Assembly: GCA_963696705.1 (NCBI GenBank)
Contig: CAVOLD010000012.1
Span: forward strand, 78,645 to 110,644
Source of the DNA: an uncultured Acidobacteriota bacterium
GTDB lineage: Bacteria; Acidobacteriota; Terriglobia; Terriglobales; Acidobacteriaceae
Direction: 5' to 3'
DNA: 32,000 bases
Below the pieces are notes generated by a model. The model ran no database searches. It worked only from the letters and a program-made list of their open reading frames with translations, and was not told the DNA's origin. Of the stretch, positions 3,503 through 28,973 are shown one piece after another. The position numbers and the translations under genes are program-made. Position 1 is the first letter of the stretch. Each line of letters begins with the position of its first letter.

Positions 3503-3558
3503 GTGATTAGACAACCAACTCCCGTACCCGACTCAGAACAGAAAAGGAGAGATTGAAC

Positions 3559-4110
3559 ATGAAACCACGCATCGCACTTTCGGTTGTATTCCTTCTGATC
3601 GCCGCCACCGCGTTCGCAGCGGACGCCACCCCCGGCCCGTCTGACGCCCAAAAATCCTTCGATCAACTGAAAGCTCTGGCCGGTTCCTGGCAAGGGCTGG
3701 TCGCCGCCCCGAAAGACTCTGGAATTCCCGAGGGGTCGATTGTGAAGGTCCAAATGCGGACAACCTCCCGTGGAAACGCTCTGGTGCATGAAATGTACGA
3801 CTGGATGAAGCCAGACGATCCGACCAAGAACGACCATCCGGTCACTATGTTCTACCTCGACAACGACCGCCTCCTGCTGACACATTATTGCGACGCCGGT
3901 AATCGGCCCCGCATGATGGCCCGCACTTCGCCCGACGGAAAGACGGTGGAATTTGATTTCGTTGATGTTGCCGGTAGTACGCAGTACGGACACATGCAAC
4001 ATGTAGTGTTCACTATCATCGATGCCGACCATCACAGTGAGGAATGGACGTTCCTGATGCCGGGAGATAAACTCATGCGCGCCCGCATGGATTTGCAGCG
4101 GATCAAGTGA
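3559..4110 (+). CDS. Secreted protein of unknown function (signal peptide; beta-rich domain with a 'THYCDAGNRPRM' motif)
   Basis: 'MKPRIALSVVFLLIAATAFAADA' is a typical Sec signal peptide. GGAGAG lies 8 nt upstream of the ATG at 3559 (the track start at 3553 is TTG). Family uncertain. Confidence 0.7.
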   Translation: MKPRIALSVVFLLIAATAFAADATPGPSDAQKSFDQLKALAGSWQGLVAAPKDSGIPEGSIVKVQMRTTSRGNALVHEMYDWMKPDDPTKNDHPVTMFYLDNDRLLLTHYCDAGNRPRMMARTSPDGKTVEFDFVDVAGSTQYGHMQHVVFTIIDADHHSEEWTFLMPGDKLMRARMDLQRIK

Positions 4111-4183
4111 CGAAGTCCGAATTTAATCCATGAGTTGCCATCCGAGAAACTCGGGGGCAACTCATGACTCTGAGGAGATTCCC

Positions 4184-4639
4184 ATGACCTTCAACCCGAA
4201 AGCGATTTTTCAACGGAACGACAGATACGAAGGCGTCCGCAACATCAACATTTACCTGTTGCGGTTGCTCTATGTGCTGATGTTCTTCGTGCTGGGCAGG
4301 ATCACCTGGACGCACGTCCTCACCCACCAGGGACCATGGGAGCCGACAAATGCCGTGGCCTGGTGCGTGTGGACGGCGTTCGCGACCTTGGCGGGGATAG
4401 GAATCATCCGCCCGGTGAAAATGCTGCCGATCGTCCTGCTGGAGATCTTTTACAAAATGCTGTGGCTGATTCTTGTAGCGTATCCACTCTTGTCAGCGGG
4501 TACGTTGGCAGGGTCACCCGCGGAAGAGATCACCGCGCAGTTCTTGTGGGTGCTGTTGCCCATCGTCGCGGTGCCGTGGGGGTACGTGTTGGCGAATTAT
4601 TTTTACAAGACGAGGAAAGTGGAAGCCGTTTTTTCTTAG
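4184..4639 (+). CDS. Small polytopic membrane protein (about 4 TM helices), unknown function
   Basis: GAGGAG RBS at 4172-4177 precedes the ATG at 4184. Hydrophobic helices such as 'INIYLLRLLYVLMFFVLG', 'AVAWCVWTAFATLAGIGII', 'LPIVLLEIFYKMLWLILVAYPL', 'FLWVLLPIVAVPWGYVLANYF'. Confidence 0.65.
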   Translation: MTFNPKAIFQRNDRYEGVRNINIYLLRLLYVLMFFVLGRITWTHVLTHQGPWEPTNAVAWCVWTAFATLAGIGIIRPVKMLPIVLLEIFYKMLWLILVAYPLLSAGTLAGSPAEEITAQFLWVLLPIVAVPWGYVLANYFYKTRKVEAVFS

Positions 4640-4657
4640 CTCTATTTGGAAAACACC

Positions 4658-5068
4658 ATGGACAGTGAGTGGAACGACAGTCAACCGATTTACCGCCAGC
4701 TTCGCGATCGCGTGGTCGCGATGATCCTCGACGGCCTGCTCAAAGAGGGCGATCCGTTACCCTCGGTGCGCAACGTCGCGGCGGAGTATCGGGTCAATCC
4801 GCTGACGGTGCTCAAGGGCTATCAGCAACTGGTGGACGAGGGACTGGTTGAGAGTAAACGAGGTCGCGGCATGTTTATCAACACCGGCGCACGCAATCTT
4901 TTGCTGCAGGGAGAACGGCAGACATTTCTTGCGGAAGAATGGCCGAGGGTCTACGCCAACATTCAGCGGCTCGGCTTAACACCGGAGGAACTGCTGGAAG
5001 CCGCCAACGGCAAGCCGTCCAACGCCAATGCCAAGGATAAAGATAAAGACGAGGAGCCAAAGTCATGA
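4658..5068 (+). CDS. GntR-family transcriptional regulator, short YtrA-like subfamily
   Basis: 'PIYRQLRDRVVAMILDGLLKEGDPLPSVRNVAAEYRVNPLTVLKGYQQLVDEGLVESKRGRGMFI' is a GntR winged-helix domain. The short C-terminal part and the immediately following ABC ATPase (stop/start overlap ATGA at 5065-5068) match the YtrA-type arrangement. Confidence 0.88.
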   Translation: MDSEWNDSQPIYRQLRDRVVAMILDGLLKEGDPLPSVRNVAAEYRVNPLTVLKGYQQLVDEGLVESKRGRGMFINTGARNLLLQGERQTFLAEEWPRVYANIQRLGLTPEELLEAANGKPSNANAKDKDKDEEPKS

Positions 5069-5940
5069 CTGTCATCGAAGCACGCGGTCTGCGCAAGGCC
5101 TTCGGCACGACCGTCGCGCTGGACAGCATTAATTTGCGCGTCGATGAAGGCCGCATCCTCGGACTGATCGGTCCGAACGGCGCGGGCAAGAGCACGGCGC
5201 TCAACGCGATTCTCGGCCTCACCCAATATCAAGGGGAACTGAGAGTGCTCGGACGCGATCCCTGGCTGGAGCGCGATCAGCTCATGCGCGATATTTGCTT
5301 CATCTCCGATGTCGCCGTTCTGCCGCGCTGGATGCGGGTGTCGCAGGCGCTCGACTATGTCGCCGGCGTGCATCCGCGATTCGATCGCGCCAAAGCGGAA
5401 GGTTTCCTGACCAAGACCGATATCAAGCGCAACAGCCGAGTCCGCGAATTGTCGAAGGGCATGGTGGCGCAACTGCACCTGGCTCTGGTCATGGCCATTG
5501 ACGCAAGATTGCTGGTGCTCGACGAGCCCACGCTCGGCCTCGACCTGCTGTATCGCAAACAGTTCTACGACTCGCTGCTAAACGATTATTTCGATCGCAC
5601 CCGCACCATATTGGTGACCACTCATCAGGTGGAGGACGTGCAGTACGTTTTGACCGATCTTATGTTCATCAATCGTGGGCGCATCGTGCTCGATTGCAGC
5701 ATGGAAGGCTTCGAGTCGCGCTTTGCGGAAGTGACCGCACGTCCCGAGCAGGTCGCGGCAGCGAGGGCGCTGAAACCGATTCGCGAGCGCCAGGTGCTCG
5801 GCCGCAGCATCCTGCTATTCGATCATGTTGAACGTCAGCAACTCGCGGCGCTGGGCGACGTGCGCACTCCCAGCATCGCGGACTTGTTCGTTGCGGTGAT
5901 GGGTGATCACGTCGAGCCGGCAAAGGGGATGGCCAAATGA
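5065..5940 (+). CDS. ABC transporter ATP-binding protein
   Basis: Walker A 'GPNGAGKST', signature-like 'LSKGMVAQ', Walker B 'LLVLDEPTLGLD', H-loop 'LVTTHQVED'. Start overlaps the GntR stop and stop overlaps the next start. Confidence 0.92.
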   Translation: MTVIEARGLRKAFGTTVALDSINLRVDEGRILGLIGPNGAGKSTALNAILGLTQYQGELRVLGRDPWLERDQLMRDICFISDVAVLPRWMRVSQALDYVAGVHPRFDRAKAEGFLTKTDIKRNSRVRELSKGMVAQLHLALVMAIDARLLVLDEPTLGLDLLYRKQFYDSLLNDYFDRTRTILVTTHQVEDVQYVLTDLMFINRGRIVLDCSMEGFESRFAEVTARPEQVAAARALKPIRERQVLGRSILLFDHVERQQLAALGDVRTPSIADLFVAVMGDHVEPAKGMAK

Positions 5941-6824
5941 ATACTAGGTCGAACGCAATGTCCGGGTCTTTCCGTGATTCGCAGATAAGCGAGTCGCAAG
6001 GAATCGCGCCCGCCATCGTCCGGGCGACTCAGCCGTTCTATTGGTCGGTGAGGCGGGAATTGTGGGAGTACCGTTCCATCTATATCGCGCCGCTGGTCGT
6101 CGCCGCCGTCACGCTGTTCGGCTACCTGATCGCCTTGATGATTCGAGGGGTGGCGCTCCTGCAACCTTTTAGCTTCGCTGCAGGCGTGATCCTGATGGCC
6201 GTTTTTATCGTCTCGATCATCTACTCGCTCGAGGCGCTGCATGGCGAGCGCCGCGATCGCAGCATCCTGTTCTGGAAGTCGCTGCCGGTTTCGGATCTCA
6301 CTACCGTGTTGTCGAAGGCAAGTATTCCGCTTGTCGTTCTGCCACTGCTCGGCTTTGCCATTATTGTTGCCACGGAGCTGATCATGCTGCTGCTGGGCAG
6401 TCTCGTCCTAATGGGGAGGGGCCTGAATGTCGCGACGCTATGGACACCCGTCTTCCGGATGTGGCTGATGCTGCTCTACCACCTGGTGACCGTGCATATG
6501 CTCTGGTATGCGCCAATGTATGGATGGCTGCTGCTGGTCTCAGCCTGGGCGCGGCGCGCAGCGTTTCTGTGGGCGGCATTACCGTGGCTCGCGATCTGCG
6601 CCGTCGAGAAGATCGCGTTCAACACTACGCGATTCGCCGCCATGCTGGGATACCGCTTCGCGGGCGGACCGGAGGCTATCCCAGGAGTAGATAGTTTCTT
6701 TGGTATGACGCAGCTTACCCCGGGCAGATTCTTGAGCAGCCCGGGGCTGTGGATCGGGCTGGCAATCACTGCGACGTTTCTTGCCGGAGCGGTCCGGCTG
6801 CGTCGCTGTCTAGGGCCGATCTGA
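5937..6824 (+). CDS. ABC-2-type-like membrane permease, paralogue 1
   Basis: Polytopic membrane protein, translationally coupled (ATGA) to the ATPase. 'EALHGERRDRSILFWKSLPVSD' resembles the E-x-E/R...LP-V/S motif after TM1 of ABC-2 permeases. Paralogous to 6869-7813. Confidence 0.75.
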   Translation: MNTRSNAMSGSFRDSQISESQGIAPAIVRATQPFYWSVRRELWEYRSIYIAPLVVAAVTLFGYLIALMIRGVALLQPFSFAAGVILMAVFIVSIIYSLEALHGERRDRSILFWKSLPVSDLTTVLSKASIPLVVLPLLGFAIIVATELIMLLLGSLVLMGRGLNVATLWTPVFRMWLMLLYHLVTVHMLWYAPMYGWLLLVSAWARRAAFLWAALPWLAICAVEKIAFNTTRFAAMLGYRFAGGPEAIPGVDSFFGMTQLTPGRFLSSPGLWIGLAITATFLAGAVRLRRCLGPI

Positions 6825-6868
6825 TTCGCATGAGTGGGTCGAACGCCCGCTAAAGGGAGAGCAGCTAG

Positions 6869-7813
6869 ATGAATACGCCATTGAACTCGGTGCCCGAGTC
6901 TTCGATTGGTTCGCAATCAGTTGAGCCGGTAGTGGTCTCGGAGACGCGCCCGCTGTACTGGTCGATCCGGCGTGAGCTATGGGAGAACCGGTCGATCTAC
7001 ATCGCGCTGCTGATCGCCGCGGGCGTTTATTTGATCGGCTACACGATCAGCCTGTTTTGGGTGCCGCGCGGCATGCACGGCATGGGAGTGGACGAATCGA
7101 CGCCTCTGATCGTCCAGCTTGCCATGCCATACGCCCACGCCCAAATGATACTCGCGCTGACCGCGTTCCTCGTTGGCATCTTCTACTCGCTCGACGCATT
7201 GCACGGTGAGCGCCGCGATCGCAGCATCCTGTTCTGGAAATCGCTGCCGGTTTCGGATCTCACGACTGTACTCGCCAAGGCGAGCGTTCCTCTCGTAATT
7301 CTGCCCGTGCTTGTTTTTGTGATTGCCGTGCTGCTGCAAATCGTCATGTGGCTTGAGAGCGGCGCATTTCTCTTGCTGACAGGTGCCAGCACAGCGACGC
7401 CGTGGGCTCCGCCAGTGTTCGAGATGCAATTGGTGCTGCTTTATAGCCTGGTCGTGATGGCGCTCTGGCACGCACCGCTTTACATGTGGATGCTGCTGGT
7501 CTCGGGCTGGCCGCGGCGCGCCACATTTCTCTGGGCCGTGTTTCCGCCGCTGGCCCTTGCTGCGCTTGAGTACATCGCCTTCCACACTACGTATCTCGCT
7601 ACGATGCTGCATAGTCGACTGCTAGGTTTCGACGCGCTCGCTTTTGACCTCGTGGACAAGAATGGCGTCCCCGTAGATCCGCATTTTATTCCGCTGGCAC
7701 AACTGGCTCCCGGGAGATTTCTAAGCAGCCCAGGTCTGTGGCTCGGGCTGTTGTTCGCCGCCTTATGCGTGGCCGGCGCGGTCAGGCTGCGTCGTTATCA
7801 GGGACCGATTTAA
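6869..7813 (+). CDS. ABC-2-type-like membrane permease, paralogue 2
   Basis: GGGAGAG RBS upstream of the ATG. It shares 'RPLYWS.RRELWE.RSIYIA', 'YSLDALHGERRDRSILFWKSLPVSDLTTVLAKAS.PLV.LP' and the C-terminal 'PGRFLSSPGLW.GL...AGAVRLRR..GPI' with the preceding gene. Confidence 0.75.
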   Translation: MNTPLNSVPESSIGSQSVEPVVVSETRPLYWSIRRELWENRSIYIALLIAAGVYLIGYTISLFWVPRGMHGMGVDESTPLIVQLAMPYAHAQMILALTAFLVGIFYSLDALHGERRDRSILFWKSLPVSDLTTVLAKASVPLVILPVLVFVIAVLLQIVMWLESGAFLLLTGASTATPWAPPVFEMQLVLLYSLVVMALWHAPLYMWMLLVSGWPRRATFLWAVFPPLALAALEYIAFHTTYLATMLHSRLLGFDALAFDLVDKNGVPVDPHFIPLAQLAPGRFLSSPGLWLGLLFAALCVAGAVRLRRYQGPI

Positions 7814-7859
7814 TTTACATGCGCTTGATTCAACGAACTCGCGCAAGGAGGTAAAGAGT

Positions 7860-8432
7860 ATGAGCGCAACATTCACGACATTATCGATGGAACGAACAGC
7901 TGGAGCGCCTCCGCGTTTCAAAGCCAAAACGGCCGGCGTCCTCTATTTGCTGAGTGTACTGGTGGCATCGTTCGCCGAGATCTTCGTTCAGGGCAGGATG
8001 AATGTCGCAGGGGGCCTCATCGCGGTCTCGCTAATGATCGCCGCGACGCTGTTCTTCTACGACCTTTTGAGCCCGATGAGCAGGCGCCTCACTTTGCTCG
8101 CTGCAGCTTTCAACCTCGTCGGACTCGCTTTTGAGCTTCTTCGATTGCAGCCTCAGGGCGTGAACGTAGCCGTTGTCTTTGACGCGTTTTATTGCATTCT
8201 GGTCGGATACCTCGTTTTCCGCTCGACCTCCGTGCCCCGATCTCTGGGAGCGTTAATGGCGTTGGGCGGTGTGGGTTGGCTGACCCTCTTGTCTCCCGTG
8301 CTCGCAAGCTATCTGTCTCCCTACAACCTGGCCGTTGGCATCCTGGGGGAAGGATCAGTGTGTCTGTGGATCCTGGTGATGGATGTAAACGTCCGAAGTT
8401 TATTGAACACAGATGATGAGGTACAAAAATGA
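7860..8432 (+). CDS. Membrane protein, DUF4386-like
   Basis: Strong RBS (AAGGAGG) upstream. 'KTAGVLYLLSVLVASFAEIFV' plus 4-5 further TM helices resemble DUF4386 proteins. The family call is from memory only. Confidence 0.65.
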   Translation: MSATFTTLSMERTAGAPPRFKAKTAGVLYLLSVLVASFAEIFVQGRMNVAGGLIAVSLMIAATLFFYDLLSPMSRRLTLLAAAFNLVGLAFELLRLQPQGVNVAVVFDAFYCILVGYLVFRSTSVPRSLGALMALGGVGWLTLLSPVLASYLSPYNLAVGILGEGSVCLWILVMDVNVRSLLNTDDEVQK

Positions 8433-8776
8433 AAAGTTACAACGTTCTTCGCATACTGAAGTTTCCGTTGCTCGCACTGCTCTTTGTCGCAGTGCTCGTC
8501 GGGTTCGGCTTCGTCGTCATGGGCTTGTGGAACTGGCTAATGCCGGCGCTCTTCGGATTGAAATTGATCAGCTATTGGCAAGCCATGGGGCTGCTCATCC
8601 TGAGCAAGATTCTATTCGGCGGATTGCGTGGACCGCGAGGGCGAAGTGGGCCCCGGCTTCATGGTTGGAGAGAACGCTGGAAACAGCGGACGCCCGAGGA
8701 GCGGGAAAAATTCCGTCAAGACCTTCGTGCCTGCTGGAGCCGGATGACATCGCCGGAACCGAGGCCGAGCGCCTGA
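8429..8776 (+). CDS. Small membrane protein (2-3 TM helices, basic C-terminal tail)
   Basis: ATGA overlap with the upstream stop. 'FPLLALLFVAVLVGFGFVVMGLWNWLMPALFGL..ISYWQAMGLLILSKILFGG' is clearly membrane-like. Preferred over the overlapping 8413-8829 ORF in another frame. Confidence 0.6.
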   Translation: MKSYNVLRILKFPLLALLFVAVLVGFGFVVMGLWNWLMPALFGLKLISYWQAMGLLILSKILFGGLRGPRGRSGPRLHGWRERWKQRTPEEREKFRQDLRACWSRMTSPEPRPSA

Positions 8777-8840
8777 GAGCAGCAAGGCTGGCTCCGTTCG
8801 CGCAAGCCACTGGGGAAACACCGAAGTAAGGAGTGTAGAT

Positions 8841-9605
8841 ATGCGATCGCCAATATTACTTCTTCACATTATCGCGGGCACTTTGGGAATGCTGTCTGGA
8901 TTTATCGCAGTGTTTCTCCGCAAAGGTTCGCGCCAACATGGCCTCGCGGGAAAGGTATTCGTCATAGCAATGCTCAGCCTGTCTGCAAGCGGCGTATACC
9001 TGGCGATCTTGAAATCTCAACCGGGCAATATTCTGGGAGGCACACTGACGTTCTACCTGGTTGCGACCGCATGGATGACTGGCCGCCGCAGGGATAACGC
9101 GGAACCCGGCGTCTTCGATTGGGGTGCGCTTCTCATTGTTTCAGCAGTCGTAGTCAGCCAAATGACTTTTGGTTTAGAAGCAGCGTTTAGCCAGACGGGG
9201 CTAAAGTACGGATATCCCTCTTGGCCTTACTTTTTCATGGGCTCCGTGGCTGTGCTCGCCTTCACCGGGGACGTTCGCATGCTGGTGCGCAACGGCGTTT
9301 CCGGCGCGCAACGGATCGCACGGCACCTTTGGCGCATGTGCTTTGCGCTGTTCATCGCAGCATCGTCCATATTTCTGGCGCGGCAACAACTATTCCCCGC
9401 GATATTCCGTAAGACCGGCGCGCTTGCTTTCCTGAGTTTCCTGCCACTGCTGTTAATGATTTTCTGGCTGCTCCGGGTTCGCTTCACAAATGCGTTCAAG
9501 AGGAAAGCGATCGCTCACGCAGCCCCTTTGATTCAATCCCCTGTGGAGAGCCGAGTCCGGCGCATATCTATTGGCCGACCGGCTGGGACTGCAGCAAGAG
9601 TTTGA
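8841..9605 (+). CDS. Polytopic membrane protein (about 6 TM helices), unknown function
   Basis: AAGGAG RBS upstream of the ATG. 'ILLLHIIAGTLGMLSGFIAVFLRKGSRQHGLAGKVFVIAML' and further helices. No catalytic motif recognised. Confidence 0.65.
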   Translation: MRSPILLLHIIAGTLGMLSGFIAVFLRKGSRQHGLAGKVFVIAMLSLSASGVYLAILKSQPGNILGGTLTFYLVATAWMTGRRRDNAEPGVFDWGALLIVSAVVVSQMTFGLEAAFSQTGLKYGYPSWPYFFMGSVAVLAFTGDVRMLVRNGVSGAQRIARHLWRMCFALFIAASSIFLARQQLFPAIFRKTGALAFLSFLPLLLMIFWLLRVRFTNAFKRKAIAHAAPLIQSPVESRVRRISIGRPAGTAARV

Positions 9606-9623
9606 TTCGATTTAGGAGGATGT

Positions 9624-10298
9624 ATGGGAACGCTTGTTGGTCTTGATTGTTCAACCGTTGAATGCACTTCGCCCACCGCACCGATCTGGCAGGACATCCT
9701 TGCACAGGCGGTGACCGGCGAACTGATGGCCGCGATGAACTACACGTCCTTATCGGAGATCTGCGACGATCATGAAGAAGTGGCCGATGCCTTGGAGCAT
9801 GCGCAGATCGAACGAGGGCACGCCGCTCGCTTCGCCGCCGAGGGCCGTAAGATCGGCGTAGATGTCACTAATAATGTCAACGCGATGTACTGGAAGAAGC
9901 TTCGCGAAGCATTCCTGCGTTGTATCACCGAGCGCGATTTTATTGCCTGCCTCATCGTCCAGGAAATCATGCTCGAGTCGTTCGCCGTCGCCAGCTATGC
10001 GCGCGTCGGCAAGGTAGCGCCGGGTAGTCTGGGCACAACCTTCGCATCCATTGCTGCCGAAGAAGAAGAGCACGTCGATCACGCCATGGCGATTCTCCGA
10101 GCCGACCGAGCCTTGGACGCGCAGCGCTTCGACGAGAAACTGTACCGGCTGCATCTCAAGGTGATGACCACGCTTGCGAAGATGCTGGCGAAAGAGTGCA
10201 AGGACGGTCACTGCGAAGTGTGTCATGCGAGTTGCGTGAAGCCAGCGCTGTTCGATGTCAGCTTGAGTGCGGCCGAGCTTCGCTGCAACAGTATCTGA
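9624..10298 (+). CDS. ado: Ferritin-like di-iron protein, aldehyde-deformylating oxygenase (ADO)-like. The annotated stop may result from a frameshift, with the possible true end at 10366.
   Basis: AGGAGGA RBS. Segments line up with cyanobacterial ADO as I recall it. 'TGELMAAMNY' matches 'EGEQEAFDNY'. 'AQIERGHAARF' matches 'AKMEQRHMKGF' (ExxH). 'CLIVQEIMLESFAVASYARV' matches '[20 protein letters not shown]'. 'AAEEEEHVDH' matches 'VRDEYLHRNF' (ExxH). All six carboxylate/His metal ligands appear to be present. Confidence 0.65.
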   Translation: MGTLVGLDCSTVECTSPTAPIWQDILAQAVTGELMAAMNYTSLSEICDDHEEVADALEHAQIERGHAARFAAEGRKIGVDVTNNVNAMYWKKLREAFLRCITERDFIACLIVQEIMLESFAVASYARVGKVAPGSLGTTFASIAAEEEEHVDHAMAILRADRALDAQRFDEKLYRLHLKVMTTLAKMLAKECKDGHCEVCHASCVKPALFDVSLSAAELRCNSI

Positions 10299-10384
10299 AG
10301 ACCCTCGACATGCTTGGAATACCCGGCGAGGTCACACTCGCGTGGGTGGCTCAGTTGCCAGTTTAGCTATGTGGGAGCGGACTT

Positions 10385-11539
10385 ATGGACGTCGATTTCG
10401 CTTTGATCGGGCATCAGGAAAGTTGGCGAGCCGCCGCGGATGTACTCGCTGTCCTGCGCGGACACGAGCGTTCGCCTCTCCCGGACGATGAGATCAGAGA
10501 CATCCTCCCTTGGATTCCGCCCAGAGTGGTCTGCCATGTCGAGGTCGAATCTACTCTCGGCACTGCCGCGCGCGGCCTCTACATCGACTGCTTTATTCCG
10601 CCCGACCGGCTCGGATCCGCCTGCGTGCACGAGAACGTCGCCCGCGTTCGCGCGGCGGCGGCCTGCGCGATCAAGGCGGGAGCGAAGATCGTGAGCCTTG
10701 GCGGATTCAGTTCCATTCTTATCGAAGGCAATTTCGATCAGCTTCCGGCAAGGCACCACACGGTCTTCACCACGGGCAATACGTTGACCGTCGGTTTTAT
10801 CGTTCAGGGCATCAAGAAGATGTGTGCGCTGGAGGGTCGGTGCCTCCGCCGATCAACCCTGCTCATCGTTGGAGCCACCGGAGATGTGGGTTCCGGCTGC
10901 GCGCGCTGTTTGGCGCCTCTGGTAAAGCGCGTCCTGCTCAATGCGCGCAACGAAGCCCGCCTGCGCCGCCTCGCCGCCGAGTTGCAGGCCGATGGAACTG
11001 ATGTAGAGATCGGAACTGATCTAGAGCAATTCTCAGCAAAGCCCGACCTTGTCATCTGCGCAGCCAGCCTCGGATCGCCTTCGCTTCTGTTGGGACGGAT
11101 TGCGCCCCACGCCATTGTTTGCGATGCCGGCTACCCAAAGAACCTCTCTCCAAACGCCGAGATGCCTAACGCCAAAATCTTCTTCGGAGGCCTGGGACAG
11201 ATCACCGGCGGCTTGAACTTTACTCCGGATCTTCGCGGAATCTTGAATCGCCATCCATTCCCCGATGTGGTCCACGGATGTTTACTCGAAGGCATGGCTC
11301 TTGCTCTGGAAGGCCGCTTCGAGCCTTTTTCCCAAGGAAGAGGATTTATCACTCCGGCGCGGGTCGAGGAGATGGAGACAATTGCGGCACGGCATGGCAT
11401 CGATCTCGCTCCGCTTTACAACGCCGACGGACCCGTGGAAAACGGCCTTCATCGCGAAACGGAAAAAGCCGGGCTATCGTCTTCAGCCAACTTAGCGACC
11501 CTACAAAATCCGCACTCTGTCGTTCGTCTACAAGCGTAA
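10385..11539 (+). CDS. aar: Long-chain acyl-ACP reductase (AAR)-like NAD(P)H-dependent reductase
   Basis: Colinear matches to cyanobacterial AAR as I recall it. 'FALIGH' matches 'FGLIGH'. 'SLGGFSSILIEGNF' matches 'ALGGFTSIIFENF'. 'FTTGNTLTV' matches 'FTTGNTHTA'. 'IVGATGDVGSGCARCL' matches 'VVGATGDIGSAVCRWL'. 'DAGYPKNL' matches 'DGGYPKNL'. 'GCLLEGMALALEG' matches 'ACFAEAMLLEFEG' (catalytic Cys position). 'ITPARVEEMETIAARHGI' matches 'ITIEKMEAIGEASVRHGF'. Confidence 0.78.
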   Translation: MDVDFALIGHQESWRAAADVLAVLRGHERSPLPDDEIRDILPWIPPRVVCHVEVESTLGTAARGLYIDCFIPPDRLGSACVHENVARVRAAAACAIKAGAKIVSLGGFSSILIEGNFDQLPARHHTVFTTGNTLTVGFIVQGIKKMCALEGRCLRRSTLLIVGATGDVGSGCARCLAPLVKRVLLNARNEARLRRLAAELQADGTDVEIGTDLEQFSAKPDLVICAASLGSPSLLLGRIAPHAIVCDAGYPKNLSPNAEMPNAKIFFGGLGQITGGLNFTPDLRGILNRHPFPDVVHGCLLEGMALALEGRFEPFSQGRGFITPARVEEMETIAARHGIDLAPLYNADGPVENGLHRETEKAGLSSSANLATLQNPHSVVRLQA

Positions 11540-13494: not shown

Positions 13495-13917
13495 CTAGAG
13501 GACTCGGCGGATGATGCCTTGCGTTAATAGGGGAACATTGAAATTGATTAGTAAGCCTACGCGTTTGTGAGCCAGCTTCAGGTAGGTGAGAAGCTGGGCT
13601 TGGTGAATTGGCAGCAGTTTTTCCACGGCTTTTAATTCCAAGATGACTTCGTCACCTACGATTAGGTCGATCTTGTAGCCACAGTTTAGCTTCAGGCCTT
13701 TGTATTCGACCGGCAGGTCCACTTGTCGTTGAAAGCTCAACCCGCGAAGGTAAAGCTCGTGACACAGGCACTCCTCGTAAGCCGATTCCAAAAGACCAGG
13801 GCCGAGGTGACGATGGACCTCAATTGCGGCGCCAAGAATAGGACTCGTGCGTGGATCTCTGTGGTTTTCTTTGGTTTCTTGGTCTTCTATGTGAATTGAG
13901 CGGATGCCTTGGTTCAC
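13495..13917 (-). CDS. GxxExxY protein (PD-(D/E)XK nuclease-like small protein family)
   Basis: '[43 protein letters not shown]......[18 protein letters not shown]' contains the eponymous G-L-L-E-S-A-Y motif and a D...E.K core. GTG start; the N-terminus ('ENHRDPR') looks repeat-derived. Confidence 0.85.
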
Positions 13918-19358: not shown

Positions 19359-20195
19359 ATGGCGGCTTCGGTTTGGTCTGGGTATCTAACCTTCGGTTTG
19401 ATTTCGATGCCGGTAAAGTTGTTCTCTGGCGCGCGCAGTTCGGGCATCTCTTTCAACATGCTGCACCGCGACGACCTCTCGCGCCTGAAGCAGCAATATG
19501 TCTGTCTCGCCGACGGCAAGGTCGTCGAACGCAGCGACATCGTGAAGGGCTACGAGTTCCGCAAGGATGAGTATGTGGTGATCGAGCCCGAGGAGATCAA
19601 GAAGATCGAGCCCAAAACCGCGAAGACCATGGAGATTCTGGAATTCGTGAAAACCAGCGAGGTCGATCCGGTTTACTTTGAGTCGTCCTATTACATGATT
19701 CCAGACGAGGCCGGTCGGCGGCCCTATGCGCTGCTTACCAAGGCGATGGAGGAGTCCGAGTATGTTGCCATCGCAAAGCTCACCATGCACAATCGCGAGT
19801 ACACAGTTTTTCTGCGTCCGCACGAAGGCGGAATGATGTTGCATACGATGTATTACAAGGAAGAAGTTCGGGAAGTAGAAGGATTCGGTGCGCCCGACGT
19901 TGAACTCAAGGACGCGGAAGTGAAGGTCGCGCACCAGTTAATTGAGGCGCTGGCGGATGAGTGGGATCCGGAGAAATATCACGACACCTTTCAGGATAAT
20001 CTTAAGAATCTGATCCAAACTAAACTCGAAGGCGGCAAGATTGCAGAAGTAGAGAAGCCGAAGAAGCTCGCCCCGGTTGTCGACTTGATGTCGGCGCTCA
20101 AGGCGAGCCTGGCGGAGATGGAAGGGAAGAAGAAGCCAGCGGCTCACGCCGGGGAAGCTGCGGCTTCACGAAAGAAATCGGGCGGAAGGTCGTGA
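19359..20195 (+). CDS. ku: Ku protein (bacterial non-homologous end joining)
   Basis: 'VWSGYLTFGLISMPVKLFSGA', 'FNMLH..D..R.KQQYVC', 'IVKGYEF.KDEYVVIEPEEIK', 'MEILEFV...EVDPVYFESSYYM.PDE', basic Lys-rich C-terminal tail. Confidence 0.93.
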   Translation: MAASVWSGYLTFGLISMPVKLFSGARSSGISFNMLHRDDLSRLKQQYVCLADGKVVERSDIVKGYEFRKDEYVVIEPEEIKKIEPKTAKTMEILEFVKTSEVDPVYFESSYYMIPDEAGRRPYALLTKAMEESEYVAIAKLTMHNREYTVFLRPHEGGMMLHTMYYKEEVREVEGFGAPDVELKDAEVKVAHQLIEALADEWDPEKYHDTFQDNLKNLIQTKLEGGKIAEVEKPKKLAPVVDLMSALKASLAEMEGKKKPAAHAGEAAASRKKSGGRS

Positions 20196-23208: not shown

Positions 23209-23709
23209 CTACTGTCCCACTGCGGCTGCCCGTTCAGGCTGCCGAGTGGCATTGTGTCGCAAGGCGATGTTCAGGAATACGTTTCCGACGGGAGTCTCGA
23301 AGCAGATAACCAGTGCCTCGGTGTCTTCGCTGCTTTTCGGTCCGTGGTCGGAAGTGTGGAGCACCGGAGGGTGCACGCGAAAATGGAATCCCTGATCGTT
23401 CAGCGATGTGACCGCGTTGCCAATCACCTGATTGGCTAATTCGCAGACGGTTTCGCGTACCAGGTCGTCCGACTCCGGCAACTCCGCTCCAGCGAACTTG
23501 CTGGCTACGCGCAGGGCGGTGGCCGGATCGAGATCGATGACGATGCGTCCTTCGATGTCGCCGGTAACCCAAATCAGCGCCGCGACGCCTTTGCGACGGT
23601 AAGCCTCTTCGTCCATGCTGAGATTGCCGACGGACGTAGGACATTGCAGTCCCTGCGCCAACACGGCATCAGCCGCGTTGATGAAAGGCTGAATCAACTC
23701 CATCTTCAT
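23209..23709 (-). CDS. cheX: CheX-like chemotaxis phosphatase (CheC/CheX family)
   Basis: 'ELIQPFINAADAVL......VGNLSM........GVAALIWVTGDIEGRIVIDLD...A..VASKFAG......DDLVRETVCELANQVIGNAV' fits CheX. The start at 23709 sits 1 nt after the cheY stop. Confidence 0.75.
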   Translation of the reverse strand: MKMELIQPFINAADAVLAQGLQCPTSVGNLSMDEEAYRRKGVAALIWVTGDIEGRIVIDLDPATALRVASKFAGAELPESDDLVRETVCELANQVIGNAVTSLNDQGFHFRVHPPVLHTSDHGPKSSEDTEALVICFETPVGNVFLNIALRHNATRQPERAAAVGQ

Positions 23710-23710
23710 T

Positions 23711-24151
23711 TCAGGCCCCCGCGCCTGCAGCTTGAGCCGCAGTGCCATCCTCACCCATAACGTACTTGATCACTTCGTACAGGACTTCCGCCTTGACCGG
23801 CTTCTGCACAAAATGACGCGCGCCCCGTTGCAACGCCGCCACGATGTTCTCCTGATATCCGACGGAGGACACCATGACAATGCGCGCTTCCGGATGTTGC
23901 TGCACAATCTTCTCGGCAGCTTCGATGCCCTCCATTTGGGGCATGGTTATGTCCATGAGCACGATGTCGGGCTTAAGGCGTTCATATTCGGTTATGGCGG
24001 TTACGCCGTCTCCGGCTTCGCCTGCTACCTGCCCGCCGAATGTTTCGATCATCCGGGCCAGGTTCTTGCGCGCGAAGACGGAATCGTCCACTACCAGGTA
24101 GCGGACTGGCTGACCGTCCTTGCTGCGTTTCACTGCGACAAACTGCTCCAT
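23711..24151 (-). CDS. cheY: CheY-like single-domain response regulator
   Basis: 'RYLVVDDSVFARKNL', 'PDIVLMDITMPQMEGIEA', 'IVMVSSVG', 'FVQKPV' are receiver domain motifs. GGGAGG lies 6 nt upstream of the ATG at 24151. Confidence 0.88.
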   Translation of the reverse strand: MEQFVAVKRSKDGQPVRYLVVDDSVFARKNLARMIETFGGQVAGEAGDGVTAITEYERLKPDIVLMDITMPQMEGIEAAEKIVQQHPEARIVMVSSVGYQENIVAALQRGARHFVQKPVKAEVLYEVIKYVMGEDGTAAQAAGAGA

Positions 24152-24208
24152 ATACAACCTCCCGCCGTTTTCAAGTTCCGGCATCCTGTTCTTGCCTGCC
24201 GGACAAAA

Positions 24209-25312
24209 TCAGATTTTGCCAACTCCGGCGGCTCTGCCGCCGTCTTCCGCTCTGGTGCTCTTTCGATCCTGCATGCACTGAGCTTGCAGGGTGTTGGCGA
24301 GCGCATCGAGAGCGATTACTCGCACGGCATAGCCGCGCTCGATAGCTGCCTTCGGCATCCCGTAGACCACACAAGATTCCTCGCTCTGGGCGATGGTCAT
24401 GCCGCCCGCTGCCTTTACCAGGCCCAGTCCATGGGCCCCGTCCTCGCCCATGCCGGTCATGATTACGGCAATACCCTTTTCGCCGAATTCCTCGGCGACA
24501 CTCTTGAACAACACGTCCACTGAAGGACGGTGACCGTTGACCCGCGGTTCGTCGCTGAGTACGGCGACATCGCCAAGTGTCAGTCGCTTGACTTTGAGGT
24601 GCCGGTTCCCCGGGCAAATCAGGGCGCGTCCGGCCAGCAGCAGGTCTCCCGACTGTGCCTCTTTGACGGTGATGGCGCAGATTTCCTCCAATCGCCGGGA
24701 AAACATCTCGGTGAATCCTTCGGGCATGTGCTGCACGATCAGAATGGTTCCGGGAAAATTCTTGGGCAGCTGCGGCAAAATATATTGCAACGCTTGTGGT
24801 CCGCCGGTAGAAACCCCAATCGCCACGATGCGAGTGGCTCGCGTTTTAGTATCTGGCTTAGATTTCGGCGAAAGATTCGGAGATTCGAGCGGTGCCGAGA
24901 CAGTGACTCGGCGGCTATGGGCGGCGGCCTTGATTTTAGCAATGAGTTCCCGCGCGATTTCCGGCATGTTGGCGGAGACATCGCTGGGCTTGGCGACGAA
25001 ATCAAACGCTCCCATGGACAACGCCTGCAGCGTCACCGACGCTCCCTGGGTGCTGTGCGAACTTACAACGATGACCGGCAGCGGATGGCGCAGCATGATC
25101 TCTTTCAGCATGTCCAGGCCGCTCATGCCCGGCATGTCGAGATCAAGCGTGATGACTTGCGGTTTCATTTCTTCGATCTTTTTCAGACCGAAATTCCCAT
25201 CCATGGCAGTGCCGACAACTTGAATGGAGCTGTCGGTTTGAAGAATTTGCGGAATCAGCTTGCGCATCAGCGCTGAATCGTCCACTACCAACACGCGCAC
25301 AGGAGAGCTCAT
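24209..25312 (-). CDS. cheB: Protein-glutamate methylesterase/deamidase CheB (receiver plus methylesterase)
   Basis: 'VRVLVVDDSALMRKLI', 'ITLDLDMPGMSGL', 'IGVSTGGPQAL', 'IVQHMPEGFT', 'VIMTGMGEDGA'. ATGA overlap with the cheA stop. Confidence 0.95.
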   Translation of the reverse strand: MSSPVRVLVVDDSALMRKLIPQILQTDSSIQVVGTAMDGNFGLKKIEEMKPQVITLDLDMPGMSGLDMLKEIMLRHPLPVIVVSSHSTQGASVTLQALSMGAFDFVAKPSDVSANMPEIARELIAKIKAAAHSRRVTVSAPLESPNLSPKSKPDTKTRATRIVAIGVSTGGPQALQYILPQLPKNFPGTILIVQHMPEGFTEMFSRRLEEICAITVKEAQSGDLLLAGRALICPGNRHLKVKRLTLGDVAVLSDEPRVNGHRPSVDVLFKSVAEEFGEKGIAVIMTGMGEDGAHGLGLVKAAGGMTIAQSEESCVVYGMPKAAIERGYAVRVIALDALANTLQAQCMQDRKSTRAEDGGRAAGVGKI

Positions 25313-27513
25313 GCCTGACCTCCCATGGCCATTTGCGCAGGGCGCGCTCGCTCGGAGCGCGACAGAAGCAGACCCACGCCGGGACCGCCAGCAATATCGG
25401 GCCGCGATGTGGCAAAGCGTTCAACAATGGCGGCGAGATTCAGAATGAGCACTACATGCCCACTGCCCAGAATTGACGCCCCGCTGACCAGATCGGTTTC
25501 TGCGGTCTGTTCATCGAGGGCCTTGATGACCAATTCCTCTTCACCCTCGATCGCATCTACCAGCAGCCCAAGTTTGCGTTCGCCCATGGCGATGACGAGC
25601 ACGAAAACTTTTTGCGGCCGGCCATCAGAACGTTCTTCTGACGGACGCCCCAAGCGAGCTACGGGCAAGACGTTGTTGCGCAGTTGCAGGACTTCGCAGT
25701 TATCGACTTGGTGGATGTCGGATTCGTGGGCGCGGGCGATTTCGGCCACCGCATTCAACGGAATGGCATACAGACGCTGCTCTACGCGGAATAAAAGTGC
25801 TTTGATGATGGCGAGGGTCAAGGGCAATTGCAACCGGAAGGTGGAGCCTTGCCCCGGTCGGCTGACCACGTGCACCGTACCCTTCAGGCGATGCAGGACG
25901 CTTTGCACGATGTCGAGACCCACGCCGCGTCCAGAAATTTCGGTGATCTCATCGGCGGTGCTGAATCCGGGGCGGAAGATGAGATCCAGAATGTCGGCTT
26001 CGCTGAGCCGGCTGGCTTCTTCGCGCTTGAGGAGGCCGCGTTCGATGGCGCGGGTCTTAACCTTTTGCGAATCGATGCCGCGGCCATCGTCAATGATTTC
26101 GACGATAACTTGATTTCCCTGATGGTAGGCCTCGAGGCGGATGGTTCCCTGAGCAGGCTTGCCGGCGCGAGCACGTTCCTCCGCGCTTTCGATGCCGTGC
26201 CCAATCGCATTGCGAACCAGATGCGTCATTGGCTCGGCGATGGCATCGAGCAGGCTCTTATCCAAGGCGGTGTCTTGTCCATTCAAAACCAAGTTGACCT
26301 GCTTGCCGCACTGCTTGGCAACGTCCCGAACCATACGGGGAAATCGTCGGAACAATTGCTCGACCGGGACCATGCGGACCTTCATCACCGACCGCTGCAG
26401 ATCGTTCAATACTCTGGACTGAAAGGCCATAGCATCGGCGAAGCGGCTGCGCATGGAATCCTTGGGATAGTGCGCGGAGAATTCGTTGAGCACCTGCTGA
26501 AGCATGGATTTTCCGATGATCAGTTCGCCCACGAGATTGAGCACCGTGTCGATGCGTTCGGCATCCACGCGCAAGACGTTCTCTGCCGGCGCGGGACTTG
26601 GCCTGACCGCGGCTTCGCGTTCGGAAGATGAGAGCAGGACGGTTTCAATTTCCTCGACCGGTTCGGCTGCGATACTTGCCTCGGGAGTCCCGGCCGGGGC
26701 AGGGTCATCGATTGCGGGAGGCTTCGGAGCGCCATCAACCACTTTTGCTTTCTGAATTGCCTGCTGCGCCGGGTTGCCAATGGTTTGGATGCTTACCTGT
26801 GAGATGACAGTCGGGATGCGGCACTTTGCACTTAGAAACTCCGCGGTCTGATCGCTGGCCACCAGTAATTGAAATTGCATCGCGTTCTTGGTGGATCCCG
26901 GCTCTGGCCGAGTTCCCAGCACTTCGCCGTTTTCTGTCAGCGCCTTGAGTACGAGTTGCTGAGCGGCAATGGGCATGGCGCAGGTCGGGTCAATCTGCGC
27001 GACGACGTGATACACATTCTTTCCCTGTTTCAGTGCGGCTTGAGTCGAGAGCTTTTCATACTCCGTCCAGATTACTTCTGCGGCAGAGGTTGTCGGGGCT
27101 TTCGGACTGCGCGGTTTGCGGGTCTTCGGATCTCGCGCCATTTTGCGGATCATCTTCCGCACTGGCTCGGACGAGGGTAGCTTCGCTCCCTCGCGATAGG
27201 AAGTCAGCATCGCGCCGAAGGTATCCGCGGCGGCGAAAGCTACTTCGGCGAGGGCTGCGGGAGTCGCGGCTGCTTCCAGAGCTAAGGCATCTTCCAGTTC
27301 ATGCGCCAGTTCGCTGAGTTCGTGGTACCCAACCGCGGCTGAGTCGCCCTTCAGGGTGTGCACAATTCTGCGGATGGTGCGGACAGGTTCGAGATCGCCC
27401 GGTTGCTTTTCGAGCTTCAGCGTCTCCTCGTTGAGCGACTGGAGCAATTCCAGAGCCGTCTCAAAGAAAAGTTCTTTCAATTCCGCCGCGCGCTCGTCGT
27501 GGAACTGGTTCAC
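25309..27513 (-). CDS. cheA: Chemotaxis histidine kinase CheA
   Basis: HPt 'RIVHTLKGDSAAVG'. Dimerisation/HATPase 'HLVRNAIGHGIE', 'DDGRGID', 'GFST......SGRGVGLDIV'. C-terminal CheW-like domain. GTG start overlapping the cheR stop. Confidence 0.95.
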   Translation of the reverse strand: MNQFHDERAAELKELFFETALELLQSLNEETLKLEKQPGDLEPVRTIRRIVHTLKGDSAAVGYHELSELAHELEDALALEAAATPAALAEVAFAAADTFGAMLTSYREGAKLPSSEPVRKMIRKMARDPKTRKPRSPKAPTTSAAEVIWTEYEKLSTQAALKQGKNVYHVVAQIDPTCAMPIAAQQLVLKALTENGEVLGTRPEPGSTKNAMQFQLLVASDQTAEFLSAKCRIPTVISQVSIQTIGNPAQQAIQKAKVVDGAPKPPAIDDPAPAGTPEASIAAEPVEEIETVLLSSSEREAAVRPSPAPAENVLRVDAERIDTVLNLVGELIIGKSMLQQVLNEFSAHYPKDSMRSRFADAMAFQSRVLNDLQRSVMKVRMVPVEQLFRRFPRMVRDVAKQCGKQVNLVLNGQDTALDKSLLDAIAEPMTHLVRNAIGHGIESAEERARAGKPAQGTIRLEAYHQGNQVIVEIIDDGRGIDSQKVKTRAIERGLLKREEASRLSEADILDLIFRPGFSTADEITEISGRGVGLDIVQSVLHRLKGTVHVVSRPGQGSTFRLQLPLTLAIIKALLFRVEQRLYAIPLNAVAEIARAHESDIHQVDNCEVLQLRNNVLPVARLGRPSEERSDGRPQKVFVLVIAMGERKLGLLVDAIEGEEELVIKALDEQTAETDLVSGASILGSGHVVLILNLAAIVERFATSRPDIAGGPGVGLLLSRSERARPAQMAMGGQA

Positions 27514-28430: not shown

Positions 28431-28442
28431 CTGTCCTGGCTG

Positions 28443-28955: not shown

Positions 28956-28973
28956 TCCTGAAATCTCTGGAGA

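Follow-up and report, generated by a model that had tools for sequence, protein, structure and literature searches.

A tightly conserved sister family of the cyanobacterial ADO–AAR gene pair in uncultured Acidobacteriota

The closest described relatives of the locus studied here are aldehyde-deformylating oxygenase (ADO) and acyl-ACP reductase (AAR) of the cyanobacterial alkane pathway, whose genes are said to lie in the order ADO then AAR in the locus described by Schirmer et al. 2010. The ADO step has been held to be 'unique to cyanobacteria' (PMC3903477). The closest structural relative of BioE, a ferritin-like diiron oxygenase of Weeksellaceae with six conserved diiron ligands, is also ADO, and BioE cleaves long-chain acyl-CoA/ACP to produce a pimeloyl thioester (PMC12704756). 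On the reductase side, PigE's N-terminal domain and the carmabin TAD are AAR-related thioester reductases of natural-product pathways (PMC8341465, PDB 9E4S). We found no paper describing the family reported below or tying ADO/AAR to Acidobacteria; KO-based metagenome surveys report cyanobacterial and Flavobacteriaceae matches only. The AAR-ADO route is considered a cyanobacterial speciality, and we now find a strongly constrained homologous pair in the Acidobacteriota, a dominant soil group.

The window (the whole stretch of DNA analysed, 32,000 nt) comes from an uncultured Terriglobia-type Acidobacteriota, in agreement with an earlier reading of the sequence alone (the sequence-only reading), which had judged the host non-cyanobacterial. 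That reading had placed adjacent homologues of ADO and AAR at 9624 to 11539, and the matches to PF11266, to PDB entries and to TIGR04058 bear this out. The Ku and chemotaxis genes that it reported in the flanks are also there. The features of the locus are the following.

3553..4110, + strand: 185-aa protein of unknown family (59% identity to L001 4744-5259)
4646..5068, + strand: short GntR-family regulator, 140 aa, PmtR/YtrA-like, first gene of the upstream cassette (Pfam GntR)
5065..5940, + strand: ABC transporter ATPase, DrrA/PmtA-like (Pfam ABC_tran; best NCBIfam matches drrA and PmtA)
5937..6824 and 6869..7813, + strand: two paralogous genes, 295 and 314 aa, of unknown family (61/80 loci)
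7860..8432, + strand: DUF4386 gene (Pfam; 28/80 loci)
8429..8776, + strand: gene of a 115-aa protein (13/80 loci)
8841..9605, + strand: DUF2306 gene (Pfam; 8/80 loci)
9624..10298, + strand: ADO-like ferritin-like diiron protein (ORF A), 224 aa in the window, C-terminally truncated (PF11266 and PDB matches)
10279..10283, + strand: 10-nt deletion site, flanked by two TCGC direct repeats (seen when the DNA is aligned with that of four close relatives)
10280..10366, + strand: remnant of the C-terminus of the ADO-like protein in another frame, SLQQYLKTLDMLGIPGEVTLAWVAQLPV followed by a stop (translation; matches 250-252-aa relatives)
10385..11539, + strand: AAR-like acyl-thioester reductase (ORF B), 384 aa (TIGR04058, PDB 6JZQ and fold matches)

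The nearest kin of ORF A, by sequence and by fold, is cyanobacterial ADO, yet it is no orthologue. It scored 53.6 bits against the Pfam model PF11266 (Ald_deCOase; gathering cut-off 28), where the full-length relative P0033 scored 47 bits, and its top 20 PDB sequence matches are ADOs throughout (E 1e-9 to 1e-6). In the PDB sequence alignment, which spans residues 23-162 only, the segment CLIVQEIMLESFAVASY pairs with a 17-residue segment of ADO. The six-ligand set E...ExxH...E...ExxH, which had been proposed from the letters alone, was recovered in full: E33, E63/H66, E118 and E147/H150 all match the diiron ligands of ADO. These six residues are invariant in 79/79 species-level genomes, as is the second-sphere Y127 (P0033 numbering; equivalent to SeADO Y122 by alignment). 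The AlphaFold2 model of a full-length relative (pLDDT 92.2) adopts the ADO-type eight-helix fold over its whole chain. Its 26 top PDB fold matches are ADOs (TM 0.77/0.87-0.89, rmsd 2.0-2.8 Å, about 2.3 Å), followed by R2lox and PaaA with a TM of about 0.6 or less. The scores against the NCBIfam equivalog model TIGR04059 fell far below its cut-off of 222.65 bits (ORF A 55.8 bits, P0033 49.6 bits), compared with 199.4 bits over the full length for the ADO-type sequence P0377. The Pfam Rubrerythrin model was passed weakly, at 27.8 bits for a cut-off of 22.8, which is below the ADO score. Some members of the family are named by NCBI simply 'ferritin-like domain-containing protein'. By alignment, the positions of the P. 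marinus ADO variants V41Y and A134F (PDB titles) are occupied by small residues in ORF A, Ala and Ser; the same PDB titles indicate that bulky substitutions at V41 and A134 were engineered to alter ligand specificity.

ORF B is, as judged from its alignment, a full-length homologue of AAR and not an orthologue. Its residues 5-340 align with residues 2-335 of S. elongatus AAR (PDB 6JZQ; E 2e-28, 32.5% identity), and it scored 136.5 bits against TIGR04058 (profile positions 2-334 of 339), short of the equivalog cut-off of 449.7. The AAR-like character suggested by the sequence-only reading is upheld: GATGDVG at residues 163-169 aligns with GATGDIG of AAR, DAGYPKNL is present, with Y250-P-K-N equivalent to the GYPKN of AAR that holds Y247, and Cys299 aligns with the catalytic Cys294. 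Across the family, Cys299 is conserved in 72/73 sequences and the GATGD motif in 72-73/73. A Shine-Dalgarno-like GGGAG lies directly 5' of the gene. The model of ORF B is of moderate quality (pLDDT 65, pTM 0.71) and has the three-domain AAR fold, with 6JZY, 6JZU and 6JZQ as best matches (E 2e-20, TM 0.65-0.75), while shikimate dehydrogenases reach a TM of about 0.35 or less. PigE is the second NCBIfam match (82.6 bits) and the TAD the second-best fold match. Several functional positions of AAR differ. Two of the three basic residues needed for ADO binding (R73/R79/K80) are replaced: R73 by C80 (Tyr in most relatives) and R79 by A86, while K80 corresponds to R87, an Arg invariant in relatives. 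At the tunnel end, Y23, Y26, M21 and M279 have likewise given way to other residues, and the C-terminus carries a tail, some 40 residues long, that is variable. Assignments of the two proteins to the rubrerythrins or shikimate dehydrogenases were considered and rejected, since the ADO and AAR models outscored both in sequence and in fold.

The pair is a tightly conserved sister family of cyanobacterial ADO/AAR. The AAR-like gene lies directly 3' of the ADO-like gene and on the same strand in 86/86 related loci, so that the homology does not result from chance, and both the proposed order and the conservation of the pairing hold. A genome scan with a narrow family alignment found the ADO-like gene in at least 273 species-level genomes. 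The best 80 of these are labelled nearly all as uncultured Acidobacteriota, and none of the best matches was traced to a cultured carrier. The two genes are also adjacent in four distant non-cyanobacterial clades, whose identities to the window clade (ADO-like/AAR-like) are 56/56% for L089, 48/44% for L090, 42/41% for L087 and 28/36% for L088. Both genes thus rank the four clades alike, which suggests that they co-diverged. Sister-clade pairs lie beside lipid genes encoding a GNAT-like protein, DUF3419 (BtaA-like) and a fatty-acid desaturase, and in a clade with a fused ADO-like protein the neighbour is a non-homologous NAD_binding_4 reductase. A point beyond the sequence-only reading is that JGI automatic labels for such pairs read 'fatty aldehyde decarbonylase' and 'acyl-ACP reductase', and that similar pairs exist in other non-cyanobacterial clades, so that the family is unstudied rather than unseen. 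Between an undescribed alkane/aldehyde pathway and a diverged sister family, the two options left by the sequence-only reading, the latter is favoured because the scores are far under the equivalog cut-offs, a Cys-rich segment is inserted and the docking residues of AAR are mostly replaced.

This insertion is a loop of about 18 residues before helix 7, with the pattern C-x4-C-x2-C-x3-C and two His (in ORF A C192-KDG-H196-C197-EV-C200-H201-AS-C204-V-K206). It is invariant in 79 species-level genomes and has no counterpart in ADO. The C-terminal third aligns unreliably by sequence: residues 167-252 of P0033 gave no meaningful match in Pfam (E up to 10) or among PDB sequences, only chance pentapeptide-repeat matches. 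In the family alignment, the counterpart of ADO helix 7 follows the Cys loop and appears less acidic. In ADO, the acidic patch of helix 7 that docks AAR consists of E196, E200, D201, E208 and E211. The Cys4/His2 loop probably binds a metal (Zn, or Fe or an Fe-S centre). It would sit just ahead of the helix through which cyanobacterial ADO docks AAR, and one may speculate that it serves in docking or relays electrons within the protein itself. A bolder proposal, which we hold unlikely, is that the ADO-like enzyme is a new type of diiron oxygenase with its own relay or docking centre, which with the AAR-like reductase would make hydrocarbons or an unknown aldehyde-derived lipid in abundant uncultured Acidobacteriota of soil and peat.

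No universally conserved third gene was found among the loci compared. Many of them have an upstream block that opens with a homologue of the 185-aa protein (172 aa in relatives; 46/80 loci) and continues with the GntR gene, on the same strand in 54/80 loci, whose homologue scores against PmtR, and with the ABC ATPase gene (56/80). The two paralogues at 5937..7813 are 55-69% identical to a 315-aa L001 protein and are present in 61/80 loci; they match no Pfam or NCBIfam family, and their position leads to the guess that the ATPase may have its permeases in them. The DUF4386, 115-aa and DUF2306 genes between cassette and pair are variably present and sometimes found 3' of the pair. The GntR/ABC cassette is missing from Bryobacterales-type loci, which have no consistent neighbours. 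The window contains no Rfam or tRNA matches (riboswitches, other RNAs), and promoter and terminator scans of it gave no excess over shuffled expectation.

On balance, the homologies lead us to favour the view that the pair would form a two-step fatty-acyl pathway, related to the AAR-ADO alkane pathway of cyanobacteria as an ancient sister. Its general scheme, in which an acyl thioester is reduced to a fatty aldehyde and a diiron oxygenase reaction comes next, is probable. In the first step, for which the homology is strong, the AAR-like enzyme would take a long-chain acyl-ACP or acyl-CoA, move the acyl group onto Cys299 and, using NAD(P)H held by the GATGDVG site, reduce this thioester, thereby releasing the fatty aldehyde. 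In the second, the predicted carboxylate-bridged diiron centre of the ADO-like enzyme, held in the ADO-type eight-helix fold, would oxidise the aldehyde with O2. Deformylation to an alk(a/e)ne and formate is our leading guess for this predicted chemistry, and a tentative one, held with somewhat less than even confidence. In many Terriglobia-type genomes, the upstream GntR-regulated ABC exporter may handle the hydrophobic product, a weak suggestion drawn from gene order. The presence of this exporter cassette in 54-61/80 loci speaks for the pathway; the conserved iron ligands and catalytic Cys, the pairing kept across clades, the small residues at two ADO substrate-channel positions, the lipid genes near the sister clades and the reductase beside the fused clade were also counted in its favour. 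Counted against it were the sub-equivalog scores, the Cys loop that ADO lacks, the replaced docking and tunnel-end residues, the end of the ADO alignment at residue 162, the absence of the exporter cassette from Bryobacterales-type loci and the example of BioE, an ADO-fold enzyme with quite different acyl-thioester chemistry.

The same layout of reductase and diiron oxygenase could serve another chemistry. The ADO-like enzyme might hydroxylate, desaturate, cleave or otherwise oxidise an acyl thioester or aldehyde, with the AAR-like enzyme acting before or after it, to give a modified lipid or a signalling molecule instead of an alkane. We regard this as a serious possibility, if a rather doubtful one. 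The scores well under both equivalog cut-offs, the new Cys4/His2 insertion with the diverged C-terminal third, the altered docking and tunnel-end residues of the reductase, the cleavage of acyl-CoA/ACP to a pimeloyl thioester by the ADO-fold BioE and the clustering of sister clades with DUF3419 (BtaA-like), GNAT-like and fatty-acid desaturase genes are all consistent with it. Polar-lipid genes (DUF3419, GNAT) beside the sister clades better suit a lipid product than a hydrocarbon. However, the protein keeps the fold and ligands of ADO together with the second-sphere Tyr, and the aldehyde-forming reductase partner is kept in every sampled clade, which most simply implies an aldehyde substrate as in cyanobacteria. 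A fatty-acyl role would be absent altogether if the pair were a generic oxidative-stress or redox module, made of a rubrerythrin/ferritin-like protein with a rubredoxin-like Cys loop and an unrelated NAD(P)-dependent dehydrogenase. The pass against Pfam Rubrerythrin (27.8 vs 22.8 bits), the NCBI name of some members and a putative resemblance between the Cys-rich loop and the rubredoxin domain of rubrerythrin all point this way. Yet the ADO models outscore rubrerythrin, the 26 best fold matches are ADOs with rubrerythrin absent among the 50 matches listed, the protein has one C-x4-C-x2-C-x3-C loop and no pair of CxxC knuckles, and its partner, instead of being some generic SDR or a shikimate dehydrogenase, is a full-length AAR homologue equipped with the Cys that accepts the acyl group. 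The redox-module explanation is hence very improbable and already largely refuted.

A further explanation concerns the window strain alone and leaves the family untouched: the locus could be a decaying relic, in which a deletion inactivated the ADO-like gene and left the pair functionless in the source genome. The 224-aa ORF of the sequence-only reading does sit at its coordinates, but it is a truncated form. Close relatives read TCGCGGAGCG-TCGC where the window has the junction 10279/10280, and the 10-nt deletion shifts the frame to a stop codon at 10296-10298. The full-length copies in genomes (n=79) are all 247-254 aa long, and the truncation takes off the end of helix 7 and the entire helix 8; the remnant at 10280..10366 encodes the remainder of helix 7 and helix 8. 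The second step was therefore probably lost in the window strain. An identical deletion occurs in an independent, non-identical JGI contig (99.6% identity, 11 mismatches), which also agrees with a relic. However, this contig stops 7 nt past the premature stop codon, which hints at an assembly variant bubble. The C-terminal remnant is intact out of frame, and the AAR-like gene, with 99% identity to P0121, shows no damage, so that the event must be recent or an assembly artefact. For the window strain, we find the arguments for and against a relic evenly balanced.

The pair provides a well-defined and directly testable target, since it consists of two small soluble proteins. If it makes alkanes, soil heterotrophs enter the biological hydrocarbon cycle and biofuel engineering gains a divergent ADO, possibly with its own redox centre. 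If the bolder proposal above holds, these Acidobacteriota would be an unrecognised source of hydrocarbons or such lipids and would offer an ADO variant unlike the notoriously slow cyanobacterial enzyme. If the product is another one, the ADO scaffold would be shown to support a new chemistry, as was recently the case with BioE.

Compared with known systems, the ADO-like protein shares with ADO (2OC5, 4RC5) the eight-helix ferritin-like fold, the E..ExxH..E..ExxH ligands, a conserved Tyr that follows the third ligand, two aromatic residues where ADO has F86/F87 and a gene directly 5' of an AAR homologue. It differs by an identity of only 18-21% in structural alignment and by its host, Acidobacteriota instead of Cyanobacteria. 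ORF B is homologous to AAR (6JZQ/6JZU) over its full length, has the catalytic Cys, GATGD(I/V)G and GYPKN, and is encoded 3' of the diiron partner, but its R73/R79 equivalents are replaced, its tunnel end is altered and its tail is variable. BioE, compared by description only, is similarly non-cyanobacterial and has an ADO-like fold and long-chain fatty-acyl substrates, whereas its gene is associated with bio genes and with a MocR-type regulator instead of an AAR homologue. PigE and the TAD resemble ORF B in the reductase fold and in the Cys-based conversion of a thioester to an aldehyde outside the alkane pathway. Both are joined in one chain with aminotransferase or megasynthase modules and supply a route to amines, while ORF B is standalone, paired with a diiron protein and nearer to AAR than to PigE. 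Finally, rubrerythrin also combines a four-helix diiron core and a Cys-rich metal site in one chain, but the ADO-like protein lacks a separate rubredoxin domain (two CxxC pairs) and has an acyl reductase as its partner.

Two adjacent ORFs of the window resemble the cyanobacterial genes for aldehyde-deformylating oxygenase (ADO) and acyl-ACP reductase (AAR), and all genes from 3553 to 11539 lie on the + strand.

Genes around the ADO-like/AAR-like pair (coordinates, strand, description)
1251-2567, - strand, GAF-SpoIIE phosphatase
from 3553, + strand, protein of unknown family (185 aa), first of the co-directional block
between the 185-aa gene and the GntR gene, + strand, protein of unknown family (169 aa)
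upstream of the pair, + strand, short GntR regulator, PmtR/YtrA-like
upstream of the pair, + strand, ABC ATPase, DrrA/PmtA-like
upstream of the pair, + strand, two paralogues of 295 and 314 aa, family unknown
between the paralogues and the pair, to 9605, + strand, DUF4386 protein, 115-aa protein and DUF2306 protein
9624-10298, + strand, ADO-like ORF (224 aa), Pfam PF11266
10385-11539, + strand, AAR-like ORF (384 aa), AAR homologue
13495-13917, - strand, PD-(D/E)XK_3 protein
19359-20195, + strand, Ku
23209-30959, - strand, complete che operon (CheX, CheB, CheA, CheR, CheW, MCP)

The ADO-like ORF matches PF11266 (long-chain fatty aldehyde decarbonylase) at 53.6 bits (Pfam cut-off 28), ahead of Rubrerythrin at 27.8 bits, and in a PDB sequence search cyanobacterial ADOs take all of the first 20 places (E 1e-9 to 1e-6). 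The aligned span covers residues 23-162. The segment that the sequence-only reading had matched to ADO aligns exactly as it claimed, and the ferritin-like ligand set it described is present, with E33, E63-x2-H66, E118 and E147-x2-H150 all on ADO ligand positions. Across 79 full-length genome copies there is no variation at these six iron ligands or at W92, Q115 and Y127, and small residues occupy the two positions at which engineered ADO received bulky substitutions (V41, A134). We modelled a full-length relative, P0033, with AlphaFold2 (pLDDT 92.2). The model matches 26 ADO structures with a TM score of 0.77 (query-normalised) or 0.87-0.89 (target) and an rmsd of about 2.3 Å; the next fold families (R2lox, PaaA and an Arthrobacter ferritin-like protein) reach about 0.6 or below, and no rubrerythrin is among the listed fold matches. 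As modelled, the protein has the ADO fold.

The AAR-like ORF aligns over its full length with S. elongatus AAR (6JZQ; E 2e-28, 32.5% identity, 323 columns), which bears out the homology proposed for it. G163-ATGDVG-169 falls on the dinucleotide loop, Y250 of D-A-G-Y250-P-K-N-L on Y247, and Cys299 on the catalytic C294 (roles in AAR from PMC7089970). The Cys is kept in 72 of 73 copies and the GATGD motif in 72-73 of 73. A model of moderate quality (pLDDT 65) has AAR structures as its top fold matches (E 2e-20), followed by the TAD reductase domain of carmabin, with shikimate dehydrogenases far behind. [quoted passage not shown] A better placement among rubrerythrins or shikimate dehydrogenases, the outcome that would have spoken against the sequence-only reading, was thus not found. 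Since both ORFs align with ADO and AAR at the key residues, the observation is confirmed. Judged by NCBI's curated thresholds, neither protein would count as an orthologue: TIGR04059 gives 55.8 bits for the ADO-like ORF (cut-off 222.65) and TIGR04058 gives 136.5 bits for the AAR-like ORF (cut-off 449.7).

The 224-aa ORF is real, but it is a truncated form of a family whose members have 247-254 aa. A DNA alignment with four close relatives places a 10-nt deletion at 10279/10280, between two TCGC direct repeats, which shifts the reading frame. The lost C-terminus (SLQQYLKTLDMLGIPGEVTLAWVAQLPV*) is intact in another frame (10280-10366), ending 18 nt ahead of the AAR-like start codon. In the model of the full-length relative, the deletion takes out the end of helix 7 and the whole of helix 8. 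The ADO-like gene is therefore damaged in the window. An independent JGI contig, with 11 differences in 2912 positions, has the identical deletion, and hence this is probably a real allele. The JGI contig stops 7 nt past the premature stop, which could reflect an assembly bubble.

For each protein the databases contain more than 2000 relatives. Among the top 120 of each, identity is at least 78-81%, and those with a taxon name are Acidobacteriaceae, Candidatus Sulfotelmatobacter, Acidobacteriia or Bryobacteraceae MAGs. Automatic JGI labels read 'fatty aldehyde decarbonylase' or 'rubrerythrin' for ADO-like relatives, and 'fatty aldehyde-generating acyl-ACP reductase' or 'predicted amino acid dehydrogenase' for AAR-like ones. 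Scanning one genome per species, we found the ADO-like gene in at least 273 genomes. The best 80 are all MAGs, nearly all labelled Acidobacteriota (Terriglobales, Acidoferrales, Bryobacterales, gp1/2/7), and five contigs bear labels of other phyla or classes. Four of the five, those with sufficient upstream sequence, have at least part of the acidobacterial-type flanks and for this reason look mis-binned. In L016, L025, L029 and L045, from MAGs assigned to Gammaproteobacteria, Methylomirabilota, Binatia and Udaeobacter, the pair shows 85-88% identity, with the GntR/ABC flanks in L016, L029 and L045 and a DUF4386 match only in L025; these are probably mis-binned acidobacterial contigs and not transfers. 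Just 183 clusters match at E <= 1e-3 among 1.84 billion cluster representatives, so that the family fills only a narrow part of sequence space.

The pairing is conserved: in 86 of 86 loci the ADO-like gene is followed immediately, on the same strand, by the AAR-like gene, and four more distant clades retain this arrangement. ADO-like and AAR-like identities are 56% and 56% in P0242/L089, 48% and 44% in P0246/L090, 42% and 41% in P0251/L087, and 28% and 36% in P0305/L088, with cyanobacteria next (about 20% for ADO, 32% for AAR). The equal ranks for both genes fit the co-divergence of an old gene pair. The AAR-like ORF has at least 330 aa in 72 of 80 loci; frameshifts or assembly errors are the probable cause of several split matches. 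Split or partial AAR-like matches occur in about nine related loci (L003, L026, L027, L041, L042, L058, L065, L080, L082), many of them from MAGs with MFD isolate names. For example, L003 has gene calls of 83 and 222 aa (8760-9956) in place of the 406-aa gene of L001.

In 46-61 of 80 acidobacterial loci the pair is preceded, on its own strand, by the block of a 172-aa-type protein, GntR, ABC ATPase and a ~315-aa protein. Bryobacterales-type loci lack this block and have no neighbours consistently in common, and the link between the pair and a GntR/ABC exporter is thus only suggestive. For the ~300-aa paralogues, Pfam and NCBIfam searches gave no family. The remainder of the window, which also encodes RarA, a SpoU methylase and Sua5, is ordinary chromosome content. 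It includes the Ku and chemotaxis genes that had been noticed in the flanks, and the PD-(D/E)XK_3 gene is probably the 'GxxExxY' gene of the sequence-only reading. The window has no Rfam or tRNA match, and promoter and terminator scans stayed at background level.

Every non-cyanobacterial clade differs from ADO by an insertion between helices 6 and 7, which in the acidobacterial clade reads C-[KR]-x-G-H-C-E-[VI]-C-H-x-x-C-V-K. In 80 of 80 loci it has all four Cys and the Lys, which are also invariant in a 79-sequence alignment, where each His occurs in 78 of the 79 sequences; more distant clades retain three Cys (C199, C202, C206) and K208. The insertion matched no Pfam domain or PDB sequence, and forms a loop in the P0033 model (residues 190-207, pLDDT 83-86). 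A 240-aa ADO-type protein of the representative library, P0377, lacks it; its match to TIGR04059 spans the full length and scores 199.4 bits, just below the equivalog cut-off, whereas the non-cyanobacterial clades sampled score 34-67 bits each, a clear gap. The acidobacterial clade also carries a further Cys pair near the N-terminus, C-S-T-x-E-C (window 9648-9665, residues 9-14), in a low-confidence region of the model; 73 of 79 genomes keep the second of these Cys, and the two residues could supply additional ligands for whatever the loop binds.

The Cys loop adjoins the helix through which docking takes place in cyanobacteria. Mutation of R73, R79 or K80 of AAR abolishes ADO binding (PMC7089970), and of these the AAR-like protein keeps K80 alone, as Arg. 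For the C-terminal third of the ADO-like protein, no sequence alignment with ADO can be made. Given these changes, the interface would be rebuilt if a complex forms. The far-end acyl-tunnel residues M21, Y23, Y26 and M279 are also replaced.

Some relatives occur in other settings. The distant pairs of L090 (6001-10500), L087 (1312-4303) and L088 (4409-6977), with 28-48% ADO-like identity, belong to larger gene clusters that also encode a 350-aa GNAT-like protein and DUF3419, known from betaine-lipid synthases as their BtaA-like domain (PMC10685587); L090 adds a fatty-acid desaturase. This suggests an unfamiliar lipid pathway built around the pair. In P0318, P0345 and P0351 (561-605 aa), an apparently ArsM-like SAM methyltransferase is fused to the N-terminal side of PF11266, and the C-terminus is 'CC', as in the stand-alone P0335 and P0343. 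In L093 (3934-7691) the fusion is followed by a NAD_binding_4 reductase and a GHMP kinase, with FeoABC upstream and divergent.

The simplest reading, which we consider fairly probable, is a general two-step scheme like that of cyanobacteria. A Cys-dependent NAD(P)H reductase, the AAR-like protein, would turn an acyl thioester into a fatty aldehyde, as its strong AAR homology indicates. The ADO-fold diiron oxygenase would then act on this aldehyde, a step proposed because of the fold, the ligands, the second-sphere Tyr, the small residues at V41/A134 and the persistent partnership. That the product is an alkane is a tentative prediction. Other chemistry with another product is held to be somewhat less likely than alkane formation; in its favour, BioE of Weeksellaceae has the ADO fold and can instead cleave acyl-CoA/ACP (PMC12704756), and the GNAT-like, DUF3419 and desaturase genes of the sister clades point to polar-lipid products. 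A generic stress-protein reading is essentially excluded.

Within the library that we searched, no paper connects Acidobacteria with ADO or AAR. One paper calls the ADO step 'unique to cyanobacteria' (PMC3903477), and KO-based surveys mention cyanobacterial and Flavobacteriaceae genes only. Compared with the cyanobacterial pair, the acidobacterial genes show the same predicted fold and gene logic, and differ by their lineage, by a new putative metal-binding insertion and by an apparently rebuilt interface.
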